A stretch of DNA of 64,000 bases from an uncultured bacterium (GTDB taxonomy: Bacteria; Lernaellota; Lernaellaia; Lernaellales; Lernaellaceae): NCBI GenBank assembly GCA_964534375.1, contig CAZHPN010000007.1:66-64065 (forward strand), read 5' to 3'. The notes under the pieces are model-generated. The model was not told where the DNA came from. It saw only the letters and a program-made list of their open reading frames with translations, and ran no database searches. Shown piece by piece: positions 56,433 to 64,000 of this stretch; positions within the stretch are counted from its first letter, which is position 1; each line of letters begins with the position of its first letter. Made by a program: the position numbers and the translations under genes.

Positions 56433-56465
56433 AGTATAAATATACTACTCAATGACTCAATGCAA
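56433..56465 (-). promoter_or_regulatory. AT-rich putative promoter of the dksA operon with a tandem 8-mer
   Basis: Minus strand TTGAGT-16 bp-TATACT; plus strand ACTCAATG x2 (56447-56462). Confidence 0.45.
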
Positions 56466-56579
56466 GGCCGCTACGGGACAAAAAAACCCGCGCACCCACT
56501 TGATTTCCGCCCCATTTTTCGGCCCGACGCCGCTTCCTTTCGCTTGCGGGCCGGACGCCGAGCCGGCATAGTGTCGCGC

Positions 56580-58556
56580 ATGCGCCGCACCCTCGCGCCG
56601 GTCGTGCTTCTCTTGGCGATGGCGACCCTCGTCGGGGCGCAAGAACGCCTCGACTTGCTTCCCGGTCACGGCCTGCCGACCCTGCCCGCGCCGGACCGCA
56701 GCGGGTTCCGCCTCGCGGTCGGCGGCCAGACCGTCTTACACGTCGCGCCGGAGGGCGAAAACCGCGCCCGCCTCATCGAGACCAACGGTGCGGCGCGCAT
56801 CGTCGATCTGCCGCCGGCGCTGGCGCTGGCGATCGCGCGGCCGGCCGCATCGCCGGCCGGCCCGCCGCCGCGACTCGTGTCGGCGGATTTCTCGACGCTC
56901 TACGACGGCGTCACGCTCCTGCTCGCCGATCCACCGCCGGCCGTGCCGCTGCGCTGGAGCGCGACGTTGCGGCTGACCACCGACGCCGGCCACGTCGGCA
57001 ACAGCCGCGTGGCGCTCCTCCGCCGCGGCGAGCGTCCGCCGAACGCCGAACTGGATCGGCAACTCGAACGGTTGGTCGCCGCCAACCCGCTGCCGCCGCT
57101 CGCCGGCGGCGCCGCACGATTGGATGTAGTCGTCGCAGCGACGCCGGGCTTACGCCCGATGTTGAGCGTTTGGGTGAGCGAACCCTATGCGGAGGACGCC
57201 GACTGGCTCGCGCCGCTCAGTCGCGGTTGGCTGATGCAAGAACCGATCGGCTGGCCGACGGCGGTCGTCGACGCGAAATCCGCCGCCCCGGTGCGTGCCG
57301 CGTACGCCGGCGATTGGCAGGCGGCCAAGGCCGAGCTGCTCGCGCAACTCGCCGCCCCGGGCGGACGGATGCTGTTCGGAAATTGGCGTTTTGGGGCCGC
57401 CTCGACGCTCGCGGCGGCGCGGCAGGCCCTGGCCAGCGCGCCGCCGGGGAAGGCCGATCGACTCGTCTTCCTGGGGGCCTGGGCGTTGGCGCGTGAGCGG
57501 CGGTTCGCCGAGGCGCAGCAATGGATGGCGCAAATCGGCGCCGGCTCGCGCGACGCCGCGCTGGCCGCCGAGGCCCGTTGGCTGGCGCTGGCGTGGCGCC
57601 GTCGCCTGGGCGGCGATGCGCGTCTGACGCCGCGCGCTCCGGCCAACGACGCGACGCGTTTTGTCTGGCAGATTCGGCTGAACGGCGATGACGGGTCCGC
57701 CGCCGGTGATTGGCGCGCCGCCGGCGCCGCGCTACGCAAATTCGGCGCCGAACCGGCGCGCGACGACGCCGATTTCGTGCAGCGGGCGCTGGTCGCGCGC
57801 GCCGCGAGCGCGCTGGCGAACGCCGCGGCGGAACTGCCGCCGCTGGCGGCGGCGGCCCTTTTCGCCGAATGGACGAACGCGGAAACGCCGGCGGCCGACT
57901 GGGCGCTGTTCGACGCCGGCGCCGCTTTGCTCGCGGCCGGCCGGCCGACCGTCGCGCTCGAGGCGTTTCGCTGGCTGCTCGGCGAATGCCCGTTCTCGCC
58001 GTTGGCCCCGCAAGCGGCGTGGGCGGCGCAACGAGCGGCCGCCGCGGGCGACCGTGAGCTGGCCAAGGCCGCGGCGTGGCGCATCGCGGCGGATTGCGCG
58101 CCCGATTCGGACTGGCTGACGGCGCGCGACGAGGCGGAAGAAATGCCCGAATGGCAGTCGGCCGTCGCTTTGCGTGCGCCCGCCGCGGCCGAGGTTCGCC
58201 TGCGGGCGCTACGCTGGCTGCGCGACGCCGAGTTCGCGGACTACTTGACTGCCGGCGGCGGGGAGACCCTGAGCGCCGCCGAGCGCGCTGCACGTTTGCT
58301 GCTCGACGAAGCGCCCGGCCCGGAGTGGCGCCGCCTCGATTGGCTGGCCCTGGGCGACATCCTGCACACCGCCCGCCGCCTGCCGGAAGCGGCGCAAGCC
58401 TACGCCAATGTCGCGCTGGACAAATGCGACGACGAGTTGCGGCGCTCGGCGCTGCGCTCGCTCGCCGCCTCGCTGACGCCCGACGCGCGGCGCGTCGCTC
58501 TCGCCCTCGCCGGCGACGCGAGGTTCGGTCCGCTGCTGGCGCCGTTGCGGCCCTGA
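56580..58556 (+). CDS. Exported Ala-rich TPR-like protein
   Basis: Signal peptide MRRTLAPVVLLLAMATLVGA; helical repeats (ALEAFRWLL..CP.SPLA; LGDIL...RLPEAAQAY). Confidence 0.65.
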   Translation: MRRTLAPVVLLLAMATLVGAQERLDLLPGHGLPTLPAPDRSGFRLAVGGQTVLHVAPEGENRARLIETNGAARIVDLPPALALAIARPAASPAGPPPRLVSADFSTLYDGVTLLLADPPPAVPLRWSATLRLTTDAGHVGNSRVALLRRGERPPNAELDRQLERLVAANPLPPLAGGAARLDVVVAATPGLRPMLSVWVSEPYAEDADWLAPLSRGWLMQEPIGWPTAVVDAKSAAPVRAAYAGDWQAAKAELLAQLAAPGGRMLFGNWRFGAASTLAAARQALASAPPGKADRLVFLGAWALARERRFAEAQQWMAQIGAGSRDAALAAEARWLALAWRRRLGGDARLTPRAPANDATRFVWQIRLNGDDGSAAGDWRAAGAALRKFGAEPARDDADFVQRALVARAASALANAAAELPPLAAAALFAEWTNAETPAADWALFDAGAALLAAGRPTVALEAFRWLLGECPFSPLAPQAAWAAQRAAAAGDRELAKAAAWRIAADCAPDSDWLTARDEAEEMPEWQSAVALRAPAAAEVRLRALRWLRDAEFADYLTAGGGETLSAAERAARLLLDEAPGPEWRRLDWLALGDILHTARRLPEAAQAYANVALDKCDDELRRSALRSLAASLTPDARRVALALAGDARFGPLLAPLRP

Positions 58557-58677: not shown

Positions 58678-60015
58678 TTAGCGCAGGGCGATCCGCCGGA
58701 AGAACTTGTCGATCGAATACGCCACGAACAGCCAGGCGTCGCGCAGATCGAGCATAGGATTGGGCATGCGGAAATGGCGCGGAATGACGGTGAACAGTTG
58801 TTTGGCGCCGATCGGGCAGCCCTTGGCGCGAACGATTTTGCGCGCGCGCACGGCCCCTTCGACGCGCGTGCAATCGCCGACCAGCAACGCGACGCCGTCG
58901 CCCGCATCCACGTCGCCCCGATAGACGCCGGTGACAATCGCGCCGCCGCGCGCCGCGGCGACCGACCCGGGCCGGCGCTTGTCGATCGTGCCGAGCGCGC
59001 CCTTGACGGCGGCCAGACAGCCGCCGTGGCACAAACGGCCGCGCGTCGGGTCCGTGCCGCAATAAAAGCGAATCGGCGTTTTGACCTTATGGATATCCTG
59101 ATATTCACTTTCGATGCCGCGCGTCGCGGCGCGCAATTCGTCGAGCGCGACGTCGCCCTCGACCCGCACGGCGTCGACGTTCGGCGGACCGTAGCCGCGC
59201 TCCAACGCCAGCGCCAGGTGGCGGCACTCGTGCGGTTCGAAGCCGAGGATACGGCAGGCGACGATGTCCATCGCCACCGGGTCGTCGGCGACGAGCACGA
59301 CACCGAGATGAAACGGCCGCGGGGCCGATTCGAAGCCCGTACCGATCTCGATCGCGTCGGCGACGACGGCGTCCGGATATCCGGCTTCCAGAAGATCGAC
59401 GATCTTTTCGTCGAGCCGGTCGTCGTGGAACAGCATCCGCTCGGCGTGGGTCAGGATGCCGACATTCAGCTTGAGCGCGCAGGTGATCGTGCAGCAGATA
59501 TGATATTTGAGTTTCGGCGCCCACAAGTAGAAATCCGCGTCGTGCAGGCTGCGCGCCAGGCGCAGCGCGCGATGGTGGACGCCGCGCGCCAGCGGGATCT
59601 CGACTGTCGGTTCGAGGTTGAAATCGACCAGTTCCGCGCCGGGGAAGCGGCGCGGATCGTAGCCGGCCTCGCGGAAAAACAGGCGCGACGGAATGCCGAA
59701 ACCGCCGGATTCGCCGATTGTTACGCGTTCAGCGCCGCGGTCGCGGCTCCAGTTCACCGCCGCGGCGACGACCCGCGGGTCGGTGAAAGAATGGTGGATG
59801 TAGCGCCGGTTGGCCGTGACGATATTCGGCTTGATGAGCGTTTTTGCCCCGACGCGCAGGCCCAGCTCGTCGAGGCTTTCCGCGATGACGCCGCGCAGGC
59901 GGTCGTCGTCGGGCGTCGCACACCGGCGGATGATCACCCGGCATTGGCGGCGCCGCTGCAACCGCGCGGCCGCGCGTTGCGCGTAACCCGAGTTTTCGGA
60001 AGAAGAAAAGCCCAT
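58678..60015 (-). CDS. DUF362 family protein (Fe-S related)
   Basis: GGGAGG RBS; LIKPNIV, TDPRVV, IGES, PKLKYH..C.IT.ALK..VG, DPVAMD; C-terminal C..GC, GDC, GCP. Confidence 0.85.
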   Translation of the reverse strand: MGFSSSENSGYAQRAAARLQRRRQCRVIIRRCATPDDDRLRGVIAESLDELGLRVGAKTLIKPNIVTANRRYIHHSFTDPRVVAAAVNWSRDRGAERVTIGESGGFGIPSRLFFREAGYDPRRFPGAELVDFNLEPTVEIPLARGVHHRALRLARSLHDADFYLWAPKLKYHICCTITCALKLNVGILTHAERMLFHDDRLDEKIVDLLEAGYPDAVVADAIEIGTGFESAPRPFHLGVVLVADDPVAMDIVACRILGFEPHECRHLALALERGYGPPNVDAVRVEGDVALDELRAATRGIESEYQDIHKVKTPIRFYCGTDPTRGRLCHGGCLAAVKGALGTIDKRRPGSVAAARGGAIVTGVYRGDVDAGDGVALLVGDCTRVEGAVRARKIVRAKGCPIGAKQLFTVIPRHFRMPNPMLDLRDAWLFVAYSIDKFFRRIALR

Positions 60016-60145
60016 CGCCAGCCTCCCTTGGCCAGTCTATCGCGAAAGAATGCCGTTCGAAAAGCCGGCGAAACCCATAGGAACGCGCCTGCCGATTCGC
60101 GCCCGGATTCTCCCACGCGAGACCGGCGACGCTGGATCGCCGGTC

Positions 60146-60173
60146 TTGACATTGGCGCCCTCCATAGGATTAT
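60146..60173 (+). promoter_or_regulatory. Putative sigma70 promoter of the Cys-rich lipoprotein
   Basis: TTGACA-16 bp-GATTAT; GAGGAGG before ATG 60215. Confidence 0.45.
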
Positions 60174-60214
60174 GTGTCTAGTTCCAACCTGTTCGGCCAA
60201 TAGAGGAGGATGAC

Positions 60215-62209
60215 ATGAAGGCGAGGATTTTTTCACTAATGGGTCTCGCGCTTTTGCTGGGCTTGATCGTTGGCGTCGTGGCGTCTTGCGGCAGTACAAG
60301 CAGCAAGGCCAGCAGCCAACAGGCCGACGACGACAATGACGACAATGACAACGACACGACGGACGACGACGGGTCGCCTACGCCGGACGACGACGACAAC
60401 GACACGACGGATGACGATGTGTCGCCTCCGGACGACGATGACGACGCCTGCAGCGCCAGCAATTGCCCGAGCGGCTGTTGCGACGCCAGCGGAACCTGCC
60501 AGCCCGGCACCGCCAATGGCGCGTGCGGCACGAACGGCGCGGGCTGCATCGCCTGCAGCGCCGGCAACGAATGCACGAATCAAAGTTGCGTCGCTTATTG
60601 CGCTCCGACCGACTGCGCGACGGGATGCTGCAGTGGAACGACATGCGAGGCCGGAACCGCGGCTGCCCAGTGCGGCGCGGCGGGCGCGGCCTGCGTCGCC
60701 TGTGCGACCGGACAAGCCTGCGTCAGCGGCGCCTGCGTGTGCAATGCGGCCAGTTGCCCGAACGGCTGCTGCGACGCCACCGGCAATTGCCAGCCGAGCG
60801 TCGTCGCCACGTGCGGCTTGGACGGCGTGGTCTGCGTCGCCTGCGCGACCGGGCAAGCCTGCGTCGACGGCGCGTGCACGTGCGACGCGGCCAGTTGCCC
60901 GAGCGGCTGCTGCGACGCGAGCGGCAACTGCCAGCCCGGCGACACGGCTGCCGTCTGCGGCGGCAGCGGCGGCGCCTGCGTCGCCTGCGCGACCGGACAA
61001 GCCTGCGTCAACGGCGCGTGCACGTGCGACGCGGCCAGTTGCCCGAGCGGCTGCTGCGACGCGAGCGGCGACTGCCAGCCAGGCGACACCGACGCCGTCT
61101 GCGGCGGCAGCGGCGGCGCCTGCGTCGCCTGCGCGACCGGGCAAGCCTGCGTCAGCGGCGCCTGCACCTGCGACGCGGCCAGTTGCCCGAGCGGCTGCTG
61201 CGACGCCGGCGGCAACTGCCAGCCCGGCGACACCGATCCGGTCTGCGGCGGCAGCGGCGGGGCCTGCGTCGCCTGCGTCACCGGGCAAGCCTGCGTCAGC
61301 GGCGCCTGCACCTGCGACGCCGCCAGTTGTCCGAACGGCTGCTGCGACGCGAGCAGCCTCTGCCAGCCTAATGCCCCCGCCGCTTGCGGCACAGACGGCG
61401 AATCCTGCTTCGCCTGCCGGACCGGGCAAGACTGTGTCAGCGGCGCGTGTACGTGCGACGCGACCAGTTGCTCGGCGGGCTGTTGCGATGTGAACAACGA
61501 CTGCCAGGCCAACGCCCCCGGCACATGCGGCACGGACGGCGAGGCCTGCTTCGCGTGCGCCGCAGGCCAAGACTGCGTTACGGGCTTGTGCACGTGTGAC
61601 GCGACCAGTTGCCCGAACGGCTGCTGCGACGGAAGCGGCAACTGCCAGGCGGGCGCGGTTCTGACCGCGTGCGGCACCGGCGGCGTCTCGTGCGTCGATT
61701 GCTCGGCTTTGACGAATGAGTACTGCGGTCCGCAGCAAGCGTGCGTGGCCGACGACGCCGAAACGGTGTGGACCGATTCGACTTCCGGGTTGACGTGGCA
61801 GGACGGCGAAACGGTCGGGACTACGCCCTCCGATTTCGCGGATGCCCCGACTTACTGCACGGGTCTGACGTGGAACGGTCTCACCGGCTGGCGTTTGCCT
61901 GACGTCGACGAACTGCGCAGCCTGCTGCGCGGTTGCACCGGCACGGACACGGGCGGGTCCTGCGGCGTGACCGATTCGTGTTTGAACTCGACTTGCGTGA
62001 CTGGCGCCTGCGCCGGCTGCTCCAGTTTGGGCGGTCCGGCCCCCGGCGGCGCCTACTGGCCCGCGCAAATCACCGGCAGCATCAATTATTATTGGACGGC
62101 ATCGGCGGAGGGCGACGTCTCCGGCAACGGGTGGTACGTCGATTTTCGCGACGGCGCCGTGGCGGGCCTGGACGGCAACAACGGCGGCTCGTTGCGTTGT
62201 GTGCAATAG
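60215..62209 (+). CDS. Lipoprotein: Asp-rich linker, nine 10-Cys repeats, C-terminal DUF1566 (Lcl)-like domain
   Basis: VAS-C lipobox; DDDNDDNDNDTTDDDGSPTPDDDD; repeats; TDSTSGLTWQ...GWRLP..DELRSL...YYWTAS...WYVDF..G...LRCV. Confidence 0.88.
   Translation: MKARIFSLMGLALLLGLIVGVVASCGSTSSKASSQQADDDNDDNDNDTTDDDGSPTPDDDDNDTTDDDVSPPDDDDDACSASNCPSGCCDASGTCQPGTANGACGTNGAGCIACSAGNECTNQSCVAYCAPTDCATGCCSGTTCEAGTAAAQCGAAGAACVACATGQACVSGACVCNAASCPNGCCDATGNCQPSVVATCGLDGVVCVACATGQACVDGACTCDAASCPSGCCDASGNCQPGDTAAVCGGSGGACVACATGQACVNGACTCDAASCPSGCCDASGDCQPGDTDAVCGGSGGACVACATGQACVSGACTCDAASCPSGCCDAGGNCQPGDTDPVCGGSGGACVACVTGQACVSGACTCDAASCPNGCCDASSLCQPNAPAACGTDGESCFACRTGQDCVSGACTCDATSCSAGCCDVNNDCQANAPGTCGTDGEACFACAAGQDCVTGLCTCDATSCPNGCCDGSGNCQAGAVLTACGTGGVSCVDCSALTNEYCGPQQACVADDAETVWTDSTSGLTWQDGETVGTTPSDFADAPTYCTGLTWNGLTGWRLPDVDELRSLLRGCTGTDTGGSCGVTDSCLNSTCVTGACAGCSSLGGPAPGGAYWPAQITGSINYYWTASAEGDVSGNGWYVDFRDGAVAGLDGNNGGSLRCVQ
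60449..61747 (+). repeat. Nine coding repeats of about 47-50 aa with 10 Cys each
   Basis: C-x4-C-x3-CC-x4/5-C-x7/8-C-x6-C-x2-C-x5-C-x4-C; units starting at 60881, 61025, 61169 and 61313 are exactly 144 nt apart. Confidence 0.95.
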
Positions 62210-62213
62210 CGAG

Positions 62214-62248
62214 GAATCAGAAGACAGCACGCAGCACTCAGAGGACGG
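62214..62248. repeat. Degenerate 7-mer array just after the stop codon
   Basis: GAATCAG AAGACAG CACGCAG CACTCAG AGGACGG. Confidence 0.55.
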
Positions 62249-62272
62249 AAAGCAAAAATTAGACGGCGATGT

Positions 62273-62306
62273 AAGGGGCGCGGCGTTTGCCGCGCCCCTT
62301 TGATTT
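62273..62306 (+). terminator. Intrinsic terminator
   Basis: AAGGGGCGCGGC-GTTT-GCCGCGCCCCTT (12-bp perfect stem), then TGATTT. Confidence 0.8.
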
Positions 62307-62332
62307 GATGCACGAATGCGCCTTCTTGCCCC

Positions 62333-62361
62333 TTGCCCGCGGGACCCGCGGCGAGTACATT
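62333..62361 (+). promoter_or_regulatory. Putative sigma70 promoter of pyrH-frr-uppS
   Basis: TTGCCC-17 bp-TACATT upstream of ATG 62389. Confidence 0.55.
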
Positions 62362-62388
62362 TCGCACATCTTGAATACTGAGGCGCGG

Positions 62389-63105
62389 ATGGGTGAAACC
62401 AAGTTTAAGCGCGTGTTGCTCAAATTGTCCGGCGAGGCCTTGATGGGGAAAGCGGCCTACGGCATCGACGACGAGCAACTGGCCGCGATCGCCCGGGAAG
62501 TGGCGGCGGCGCGCAAGACCGGCGTGCAAATCGGGCTGGTCCTGGGCGGCGGCAATATCTTCCGCGGCGTGAAGGGCGCCAGTCAGGGCATGGATCGCGC
62601 CAGCGCCGACTACATGGGCATGCTCGCCACCGTCCTCAACGCCCTGGCGATGCAGCATGCGCTCGAGCGCGAAGGCTGCCCGACGCGGGTGATGAGCGCG
62701 CTGCCGATGCAGGCCGTCGCCGAGCCCTACCTCCGCCAGCGGGCCATCCACCTGCTCGACCAGGGTTACGTGGTGATCTTCTGCGCCGGAACGGGCAGCC
62801 CCTTCTTCACCACCGACACGGCGGCCGCGTTGCGGGCCGCGGAGACCGGCGCCCAAATCGTGATGAAGGCGACGAAGGTCGACGGCGTCTACGCTGAAGA
62901 CCCGGTGACGAATCCGGGCGCGGAGTTCTTTGCGAATTTGACTTTTGGCGACGTGATGGCCAAGAATCTGCGGGTAATGGATTTGGCGGCCGTCAGTTTG
63001 TGCCGCGATAATTCCATTCCCATTTTGGTGTTCAACCTGCTCGTGCCCGGCAACATTCTGCGGGCCGTGCGGGGCGAAGCAGTCGGAACGTTAATCAAGG
63101 AGTGA
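62389..63105 (+). CDS. pyrH: UMP kinase
   Basis: [44 protein letters not shown]. Confidence 0.97.
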
Positions 63106-63108
63106 ATC

Positions 63109-63666
63109 GTGATCGACGATGTCCTCAGCGAGTGCAAGCAAGGCATGGAAAAGGCGATCTCCAACCTCGGGCGCGAATTGGCCAAGGTCCGCACCGGCCG
63201 CGCCAACCCGACGATCATCGACGGCATTCGCGTCGATTATTACGGCACGCCGACGCCGATCAGCCAGATGGCGACCGTCGCCGTGCCCGAAAGCCGGTTG
63301 ATCGTCATTTCGCCGTGGGAACAGAGCCGCTGCGGCGACATCGCCAAAGCGATCCAGGCCGCCGACATCGGCCTGACGCCGCAGACCGACGGCAAGGTCG
63401 TGCGCCTGCCGTTCCCCTCGCTCACCGAGGATCGGCGCAAAGAGCTGGTCAAGGTCGTCAAGAAGATCGGCGAGGACCACAAAATCGTCGTCCGCAAAGA
63501 GCGCCGCGACGCCAACGACCTGCTTAAAGCGCTGCAAAAAGACGGCGAAATCGCCGAAGACGACTCGCACAAGGCCGTCGACCGCGTCCAAAAAATGCAC
63601 GACGACTACATCAAGAAGATCGACGATGTCCTTACGCGGAAAGAATCCGAAATCATGGAGATCTGA
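63109..63666 (+). CDS. frr: Ribosome recycling factor
   Basis: VRTGRANP, YYG.PTP, GLTPQ.DG, LTEDRRKELVK, KESEIME. Confidence 0.97.
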   Translation: MIDDVLSECKQGMEKAISNLGRELAKVRTGRANPTIIDGIRVDYYGTPTPISQMATVAVPESRLIVISPWEQSRCGDIAKAIQAADIGLTPQTDGKVVRLPFPSLTEDRRKELVKVVKKIGEDHKIVVRKERRDANDLLKALQKDGEIAEDDSHKAVDRVQKMHDDYIKKIDDVLTRKESEIMEI

Positions 63667-64000
63667 GCCGGCGCCGGCCGGCCCCGGCGAGCCGCCGGGC
63701 CCGGGACTCGATCCGTCGCGGCTGCCGCGTCACGTGGCGATCATCATGGACGGCAACGGCCGGTGGGCCAAGAGCCGCGGCCTGCCGCGCGTCAGCGGTC
63801 ACCGGCAGGGCGCGGTGGCGACGCGGACGGTCATTCGCGCGTGCCGGAAAATGAATGTGCCGTACCTGACGCTTTACGCCTTCTCGCTGGAGAACTGGAA
63901 TCGGCCGCCGCGCGAGGTGGAGACGTTGATGCGGCTGCTGTCGCGCACGCTGGCGCGGGAAGTCGTGAAGCTGCTGAAATATGACATCCGGCTGCGGACG
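63626..64000 (+). CDS. uppS: Isoprenyl transferase (undecaprenyl diphosphate synthase), 3'-truncated
   Basis: LPRHVAIIMDGNGRWA from 63722, GHRQG, LTLYAFSLENWNRP; nearest in-frame ATG is 63626 inside frr, so the start is uncertain. Confidence 0.92.
   Translation, partial: MSLRGKNPKSWRSEPAPAGPGEPPGPGLDPSRLPRHVAIIMDGNGRWAKSRGLPRVSGHRQGAVATRTVIRACRKMNVPYLTLYAFSLENWNRPPREVETLMRLLSRTLAREVVKLLKYDIRLRT

Follow-up and report, generated by a model that had tools for sequence, protein, structure and literature searches.

The 64,000-nucleotide stretch of DNA analysed here (the window; GenBank assembly GCA_964534375.1, contig CAZHPN010000007.1, positions 66 to 64,065 of the forward strand) comes from an uncultured bacterium of the family Lernaellaceae in the phylum Lernaellota. 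At positions 60215-62209 of its + strand an open reading frame (ORF) encodes a protein of 664 residues, in which nine tandem units with ten cysteines each lie between a predicted N-terminal lipid anchor with an acidic linker and a C-terminal domain of the Lcl_C (DUF1566) family. We consider it reasonably likely that this protein is a stand-alone envelope lipoprotein in which a membrane anchor is followed by a polyanionic tether, a disulfide-bonded rod acting as spacer and a head that binds a ligand; its disulfide bonding, rigidity and surface exposure, as well as the binding function and its ligand, are what we infer from the sequence and the structure models. The finding is a new, uncatalogued variant of a module within a known kind of protein, the cysteine-rich stalk with an adhesive head. 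Stalk lipoproteins of a similar kind already recur among uncultured Myxococcota-like genomes, and a new principle is not demonstrated.

In the proposed arrangement the lipidated Cys25 would anchor the protein in a membrane and the poly-Asp tether of about 50 residues would act as a flexible, strongly negative spacer, while the nine 48-residue modules, each with five disulfides, would stack their beta-hairpins into a stiff, protease-resistant rod. This rod would keep the C-type-lectin-like Lcl_C head off the membrane and allow it to bind an external ligand, for which a glycan, a polymer or a cell-surface feature of particles or other cells would be the likeliest candidates. Tandem duplication of units would tune the length of the stalk, with units 4-6 as a recent example, and the protein would be one member of a large genome-specific expansion that recombines the same stalk and the same head.

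Organization of the protein and reproducibility of the repeat array

A preliminary description made from the sequence alone had depicted the gene product as a lipoprotein with about 99 cysteines (about 15% of its residues), an acidic linker, nine ten-cysteine repeats of fixed spacing and a lectin-like tip, and this outline holds throughout. The product contains exactly 99 Cys (14.9%) along with 99 Gly, 97 Ala and 66 Asp, only 2 Lys and no His; the net charge of its mature form is -68. Its N-terminus consists of MKAR, an 18-residue hydrophobic stretch and the sequence V-A-S-C25, which on inspection fits the lipobox pattern [LVI][ASTVI][GAS]C within the first ~35 residues, so that the signal peptide with its lipobox (MKARIFSLMGLALLLGLIVGVVAS, followed by C25; 60215-60289, + strand as for all parts of the protein) predicts a lipoprotein with Cys25 as the lipidated residue. 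The D/N/T-rich linker that follows (residues 26-78; 60290-60448) contains a 48-nucleotide internal DNA repeat and, counted from Cys25 to residue 78, has 23 Asp among 54 residues and a net charge of -22. Many paralogs likewise have an acidic linker beside the anchor. In one paralog, encoded at C98:18390-20507 on the - strand (C numbers denote contigs) with the layout Lcl_C, five units, Lcl_C, the protein equals its public version except for a 45-residue indel in the poly-Asp linker, and the length of the linker thus differs between strains or assemblies.

The stalk (residues 79-510; 60449-61744) holds 90 of the cysteines, has a net charge of -33 and is devoid of Lys and His. Its nine units start at residues 79, 129, 176, 223, 271, 319, 367, 414 and 461, are 47-50 residues long and share the cysteine spacing C-x4-C-x3-CC-x5-C-x8/9-C-x6-C-x2-C-x5-C-x4-C. 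At the DNA level Tandem Repeats Finder reports a period of 144 nucleotides with 6.9 copies and a score of 1062. Units 4-6 (60881-61312) appear to be recently duplicated copies, as had been proposed, with 9-13 differences per 144 nucleotides, corresponding to 91-94% identity in DNA and 90-94% in protein and about as many synonymous as non-synonymous changes; the units outside this block are 36-73% identical in protein.

Near-identical tandem copies of this kind can also arise when short reads are assembled, by collapse, expansion or chimerism, and the nine-unit array or the similarity of units 4-6 could be such an artefact. To this end the locus was followed into independent assemblies through the neighbouring frr gene, by which three public contigs were reached. 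A contig from ERZ27249816 (ENA) is 100% identical to window positions 60357-64000 without a gap, and one from ERZ27250145 (ENA) matches 59646-64000, also without gaps and with one mismatch at 59701, outside the gene; the Logan contig of SRR6181340 matches the window from 61602 onward. The first two derive from other samples and reproduce all nine units gap-free, with units 4-6 the same base for base. Moreover, the longest exact repeat within the gene is 59 nucleotides, far below the k=141 given in the names of the public contigs and shorter than a typical read; the reading frame is unbroken and the unit boundaries are regular. What speaks for an artefact is the array itself with its 91-94% identical copies, the fact that one public contig ends inside the acidic linker, and the 45-residue indel of the paralog mentioned above, by which low-complexity parts can vary with assembly or strain. 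Given the gap-free identity in two independent assemblies and a longest exact repeat shorter than k, the nine-unit array including units 4-6 is reproducible and an assembly artefact is highly improbable.

Coding strand and public annotation

The stalk gene has long open frames on both strands. On the - strand, mirror ORFs span 60236-62230 (664 residues) and 60595-61677 (360 residues), and the public gene calls at this locus comprise the 360-residue antisense ORF over the stalk together with, on the + strand, only a 154-residue Lcl_C product starting from a GTG at 61745. In an exact look-up, both the 664-residue protein and its antisense counterpart were absent from a collection of 15 billion proteins. 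Judged by the sequence, the + strand is the coding strand and the antisense ORFs are not genes, because the + strand frame combines a signal peptide, a ribosome-binding site, an in-frame Pfam domain, more than 1,000 homologs and confident structure models. GC-rich genes of cysteine repeats may be systematically mis-called by standard gene callers, and with such wrong-strand calls the family is probably under-counted. The stalk region (60500-61500) has a GC content of 73-74% compared to 64% genome-wide, which the codons TGC, GGC and GCC of its many Cys, Gly and Ala residues explain; by itself the difference is no evidence of foreign origin.

Novelty of the repeat unit

The preliminary description had suggested that the repeat may be an undescribed domain, and within the scope of Pfam (2025 copy), NCBIfam release 20 and the PDB this assessment stands. 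When the whole protein was compared with Pfam-A and NCBIfam at E<=1, the repeat region gave no match. Single units as well as blocks of two and three units likewise gave none at E<=10, apart from one stray sub-threshold match to PUA that is due to chance. The unit matches no PDB sequence, no Pfam family covers the repeats in 77 diverse family members, and no published description of a 48-residue repeat with ten cysteines was found in the literature.

Stig1-like and myxobacterial cysteine-rich repeats, which had been named beforehand for comparison, were covered by scans of the whole genome with the four likeliest curated repeat models, none of which matched a unit-bearing ORF. For Stig1 (PF04885) the genome scan returned only two sub-threshold matches (E 0.06 and 0.8), both on contigs that lack units, C72 and C149. 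For Dicty_CTDC (PF00526), neither the genome scan at E<=1 nor the Pfam scans gave a match. The best genome match of TIGR04201 (Myxo_Cys_RPT) has an E-value of 0.63 and lies on an unrelated contig, with none at E<=1 in the scan of the protein, and TIGR02232 (myxo_disulf_rpt) had no genome match at E<=1 and none in the NCBIfam scan.

Beyond the source genome, a global search with a three-unit profile retrieved 1,613 cluster representatives out of 1.84 billion at E<=1e-3, and 159 with the limit set to E<=1e-30. The named matches are mostly metagenome-assembled genomes (MAGs) labelled Myxococcota, Polyangiaceae, Archangium or Deltaproteobacteria. The module is thus present in at least 1,613 protein clusters without having a family model, a structure or a tested function, and with a family model and a single solved structure thousands of proteins now listed as "hypothetical" would become annotated; these would also help to study the attachment of polymer-degrading anaerobes to particles or to other cells.

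Predicted fold of the stalk

An AlphaFold2 model of units 6-8, computed from 83 in-register three-unit blocks that all stem from the paralogs of the source genome, is of high confidence (mean predicted local distance difference test, pLDDT, 94.8; predicted template modelling score, pTM, 0.69) and shows a ladder in which each unit contributes a short series of beta-hairpins and no helices. The extendable stalk proposed in the preliminary description finds support in this ladder and in the mirror-image architectures of the paralogs described below. A Foldseek search of the three-unit model against the PDB returned no significant neighbour; the weak top matches are the cysteine-rich domains of 4-1BB, RANK and OX40, mastigoneme epidermal growth factor (EGF)-like regions and the cysteine-rich region of the insulin receptor. 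The tandem, cysteine-dense hairpin modules agree with the comparison with eukaryotic EGF-repeat surface proteins made in the preliminary description, but the unit has no significant similarity in sequence or fold to the EGF-like or the tumour necrosis factor receptor (TNFR) superfamilies.

The lectin-like tip

The tip (residues 511-664; 61745-62209 including the stop codon) has eight Cys and a net charge of -13. Its assignment to a DUF1566-like, lectin-like domain is supported: Pfam PF07603 (Lcl_C) matches residues 519-663 with an E-value of 4e-14 and 53.3 bits against a gathering cut-off of 34.9, spanning profile positions 3-116 of 117. The AlphaFold2 model of the tip, built from 62 tip domains of the source genome, reaches a pLDDT of 96-99 over the Lcl_C part, while unit 9, covered by few rows of that alignment, is poorly modelled there. 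The best Foldseek match is the Lcl C-terminal domain from Legionella pneumophila (Lcl-CTD; 8q4e_A, E 4.5e-4, probability 1.0), followed by the fibre tip Bd2740 of Bdellovibrio (8oks) and then by many C-type-lectin-like domains of snake venoms and animals. The Lcl-CTD monomer has a C-type-lectin-like fold without disulfides and binds sulphated glycosaminoglycans through surface lysines (PMC11162425), and both it and the Bd2740 tip are experimentally characterised adhesive heads on stalks (PMC11162425; PMC10769870).

The cysteine-rich insert that had been attributed to the tip was found as well. It comprises residues 574-602 (CTGTDTGGSCGVTDSCLNSTCVTGACAGC; 61934-62020), lies between the WRLP helix and the YWSS strand and carries six of the eight conserved tip cysteines; relative to 8q4e the insertion amounts to about 40 residues, with ~55 profile positions aligned with 14 residues of that structure. 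The other Lcl_C copies of the genome keep the insert, eight being the commonest number of cysteines. A diversity-generating retroelement template for the tip was sought with blastn (61741-62215 against the genome), which returned only paralogs of at most 73% identity; a reverse transcriptase was not searched for.

Paralogs, architectures and distribution

The source genome (6.3 Mb, 94% complete) encodes 219 units in 44 ORFs and has 83 Lcl_C matches, many of them in tandem within one protein and nearly all with the same cysteine-rich insert; 14 control genomes contain no Lcl_C. Examples of this Lcl_C expansion are found on contigs C81, C34, C11, C93, C20 and C122. A scan for related loci with the single protein as query yielded eight Lcl_C loci, all from MAGs. 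The unit itself is present in four of 17 species genomes of the phylum, with 99 three-unit matches here and two to six in each of the other three, and within this set the expansion of the unit is genome- or genus-specific.

Two layouts recur among the paralogs. In the first, to which the present protein belongs, a lipobox is followed by an acidic linker, the units and a distal domain; relatives with this layout have 4, 7 or 10 units and then other C-terminal regions. The second is its mirror image, with a signal peptide, the distal domain, the units, an acidic linker and a GCGC tail. Either way, the units separate the tether beside the presumed anchor from the domain at the far end. The acidic tract with a C-terminal G-C-G-C was seen in many unit-bearing paralogs (contigs C6, C123, C232, C40, C178, C142, C11, C38 and C32), and two further paralogs (C35 and C47) share an end in ...SYCPC after an extra domain of ~85 residues. 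Within the source genome, Lcl_C heads sit on stalks of one, two, five and nine units, a natural length series for the idea of a spacer, and elsewhere the heads found on units are C2, a clostripain-family peptidase (Peptidase_C11), pentapeptide repeats, a phosphoesterase and Lcl_C. Mirror-image layouts and varied heads together form the pattern expected of a generic spacer with interchangeable heads.

A different role would fall to the stalk if the repeats themselves were the functional part, as a disulfide-rich array resembling inhibitors or toxins, for instance protease inhibitors or antimicrobial knottin-like units, or as a self-associating matrix or coat, with Lcl_C serving for attachment only. 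Paralogs consisting of anchor, linker and units without a distal head do exist, one with 20 units (C2) and one with 18 (C146), and the 44 paralogs and 83 Lcl_C matches could together form a polyanionic coat. A short local Foldseek match to the protease inhibitor hirustasin (rank 47, E 4.8) and the many secreted peptidases inferred for the lineage (PMC9324843) would fit an inhibitor. However, neither sequence nor fold matches an inhibitor or toxin family significantly, the units are highly uniform with few variable surface positions, and in most architectures they flank a distinct distal domain, so that a function of the repeats of their own appears rather unlikely.

Returning to the spacer, a broader proposal can be put forward tentatively. 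The 48-residue unit with ten cysteines may be a bacterial domain that has so far gone undescribed and whose fold lacks any solved relative, and Lernaellota and Myxococcota might use it as a length-adjustable, disulfide-laddered stalk for display in two orientations, anchored either at the N-terminus by a lipobox or at the C-terminus by an acidic-GCGC tail, with interchangeable heads. The ~44 stalk proteins and ~80 lectin-like heads of this genome could then amount to a repertoire of surface receptors analogous to eukaryotic ectodomains of the EGF and TNFR type.

Proposed disulfide formation and observations against a disulfide-bonded binding stalk

Among 1,612 distinct units, the ten cysteine columns are occupied to 90-100%. 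C1 and C4 are lost jointly in 19-21 units, the sole recurrent double loss, which suggests that these two form a bonded pair; the other cysteines are too invariant to be paired in this way. With even numbers of cysteines throughout (10 per unit, 8 in the tip), five disulfides per unit probably lock the module.

Several observations weigh against a disulfide-bonded rod with a binding head. No match to DsbB or VKOR was found in the source MAG at its 94% completeness. Lernaellota are inferred from MAGs to ferment amino acids, to degrade proteins and polysaccharides and to live mostly in anoxic water (PMC9324843), which makes the formation of disulfides outside the cytoplasm less self-evident. Lastly, the sole mechanistically characterised Lcl_C domain uses a positive surface, and the tip, with no Lys, five Arg and 18 Asp plus Glu, lacks the Lcl-type positive glycosaminoglycan-binding surface (Lys369/380/385/391; PMC11162425). 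Its residues thus argue against transferring Lcl-type glycosaminoglycan binding to this tip, and its ligand is probably not a polyanion.

Regarding the oxidase, the preliminary description had called for strong Dsb capacity. The source genome encodes one membrane-anchored DsbA-like protein with a CPFC motif (C115:8085-8999), and six of the seven other genomes of the family encode a VKOR-DsbA fusion of ~400 residues with CxxC in both halves (for example G015:C119:104856-105251 and G016:C28:23214-23612, in two of these relatives), but the assembly has neither DsbB nor VKOR. DsbB is essentially absent across the phylum, and a tblastn search of the source genome with two of the VKOR-DsbA fusions returned only the DsbA-like protein. 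Since the fusions occur in six of seven relatives, the absence of the oxidase is probably an assembly gap, and the simplest reading of these sequences would place the missing gene in the unassembled 6% of the genome. Some 2,200 repeat cysteines outside the cytoplasm would have to be oxidised in this lineage, although it is described from anoxic water.

If the loss of the oxidase were real, in the genome that has the most Cys-rich exported proteins, it would strengthen another explanation, according to which the repeats are thiolate metal-binding modules and the protein a metallothionein-like buffer or sequestration protein in the envelope of an anaerobe. Apart from the missing DsbB/VKOR, this could account for the 15% Cys, would suit a phylum whose MAGs are most abundant in anoxic water (PMC9324843) and would draw on the highly acidic character of the whole protein, which would attract cations. 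Against it stand the even and invariant cysteine counts, the paired loss of C1 and C4, and the confident beta-hairpin model with conserved Gly and Pro, metallothioneins being unstructured. The DsbA-like protein and the fusions of the relatives also speak for oxidation, and the units are consistently placed as spacers between tether and head. Nor are metal-cluster or haem motifs seen: without His there can be no CxxCH, and each unit has a single CxxC. Metal binding by the repeats is therefore quite improbable, and a disulfide-bonded spacer is the reading retained here.

Genomic context of the gene

The gene looks like an independent transcription unit, since it has its own promoter-like site, ribosome-binding site and hairpin terminator. 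The promoter-like site (TTGACA, 16 nucleotides, GATTAT; 60146-60173, + strand) matches 10 of 12 consensus positions and is a consensus match only, one such site being found where 0.2 are expected from shuffles. A Shine-Dalgarno sequence GAGGAGG (60203-60209, + strand), read directly from the sequence, precedes the ATG at 60215 by five nucleotides. The predicted intrinsic terminator (62273-62309, + strand) is a perfect 12-bp inverted repeat with a 4-nucleotide loop and a T-rich tail, its hairpin proper (62273-62300) lying 64 nucleotides 3' of the stop. Between stop codon and terminator, degenerate CAGNNNN heptamers (CAGAAGA CAGCACG CAGCACT CAGAGGA) occupy 62214-62248, where the repeat search, at the settings used, reported no direct-repeat family.

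The cysteine-rich gene has a divergent DUF362 gene and pyrH-frr-uppS as its neighbours, and no functional link to either is evident. Upstream, 56460-58556 (+ strand) encodes an exported 698-residue protein without a Pfam match that is 44% (G015) and 34% (G016) identical to its counterparts in relatives, where its gene lies directly upstream of pyrH; in the source genome the DUF362 gene and the cysteine-rich gene are inserted between the two. As relatives in the family have the order orf698-pyrH-frr without the DUF362 gene and without the cysteine-rich gene, the latter is not syntenically conserved and synteny is uninformative on its function. The Frr protein of the window shares 72% identity with its counterpart in Candidatus Lernaella stagnicola and at most 63% with proteins labelled Deltaproteobacteria or Desulfobacterales, in keeping with a genome of the Lernaellota (FEN-1099).

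Comparison with known systems

Legionella Lcl, whose head is the closest structural match of the tip, likewise ends in an Lcl_C domain that sits on a long stalk of repeats, variable in number. Its stalk is a trimeric collagen triple helix, whereas the present one is an array of cysteine-rich modules, and its disulfide-free, positively charged C-terminal domain contrasts with a tip that has eight conserved Cys and an insert of ~40 residues, lacks Lys and is strongly acidic (net charge -13). Furthermore, Lcl leaves the cell through the type II system and is attached by an N-terminal helix, whereas the protein described here has a lipobox. The MAT surface fibres of Bdellovibrio bacteriovorus, a family of chimeric proteins, share the principle of a common stalk with many interchangeable adhesive tips (PMC10769870), among them a Ca-independent C-type-lectin fold, to which 8oks, the second-best structural match of the tip, belongs. 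Those fibres are trimeric, coiled or beta-helical and free of cysteine-rich modules; the present protein was modelled as a monomer only.

In the stalk, the likeness is to eukaryotic disulfide-rich modules such as the TNFR cysteine-rich domains, EGF-like and furin-like repeats and granulin-type hairpin stacks, which are also tandem modules of ~40-50 residues, consist of small beta-hairpins whose cysteines are dense and regular in spacing, and form elongated ectodomains.

Among bacteria, TraA of Myxococcus is a surface protein with a long cysteine-rich beta-hairpin region that was proposed to be a stalk presenting its recognition domain (PMC12045341). The TIGR04201 stalk of Myxococcus xanthus TraA matches no unit-bearing ORF here, the present unit being a different 48-residue module with ten cysteines, and the TraA head is PA14-like, whereas the present protein has an N-terminal lipobox anchor and an Lcl_C head. 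Nevertheless, TraA, with its variable head, its stalk and its MYXO-CTERM, resembles the present protein in that a cysteine-rich hairpin stalk presents a head, and the GCGC after the acidic tract in paralogs of the source genome recalls such C-terminal sorting tags. Surface receptors of this design, a cysteine-rich stalk with exchangeable heads, are turning out to be common in uncultured Myxococcota-like bacteria, and of them only TraA has been studied.

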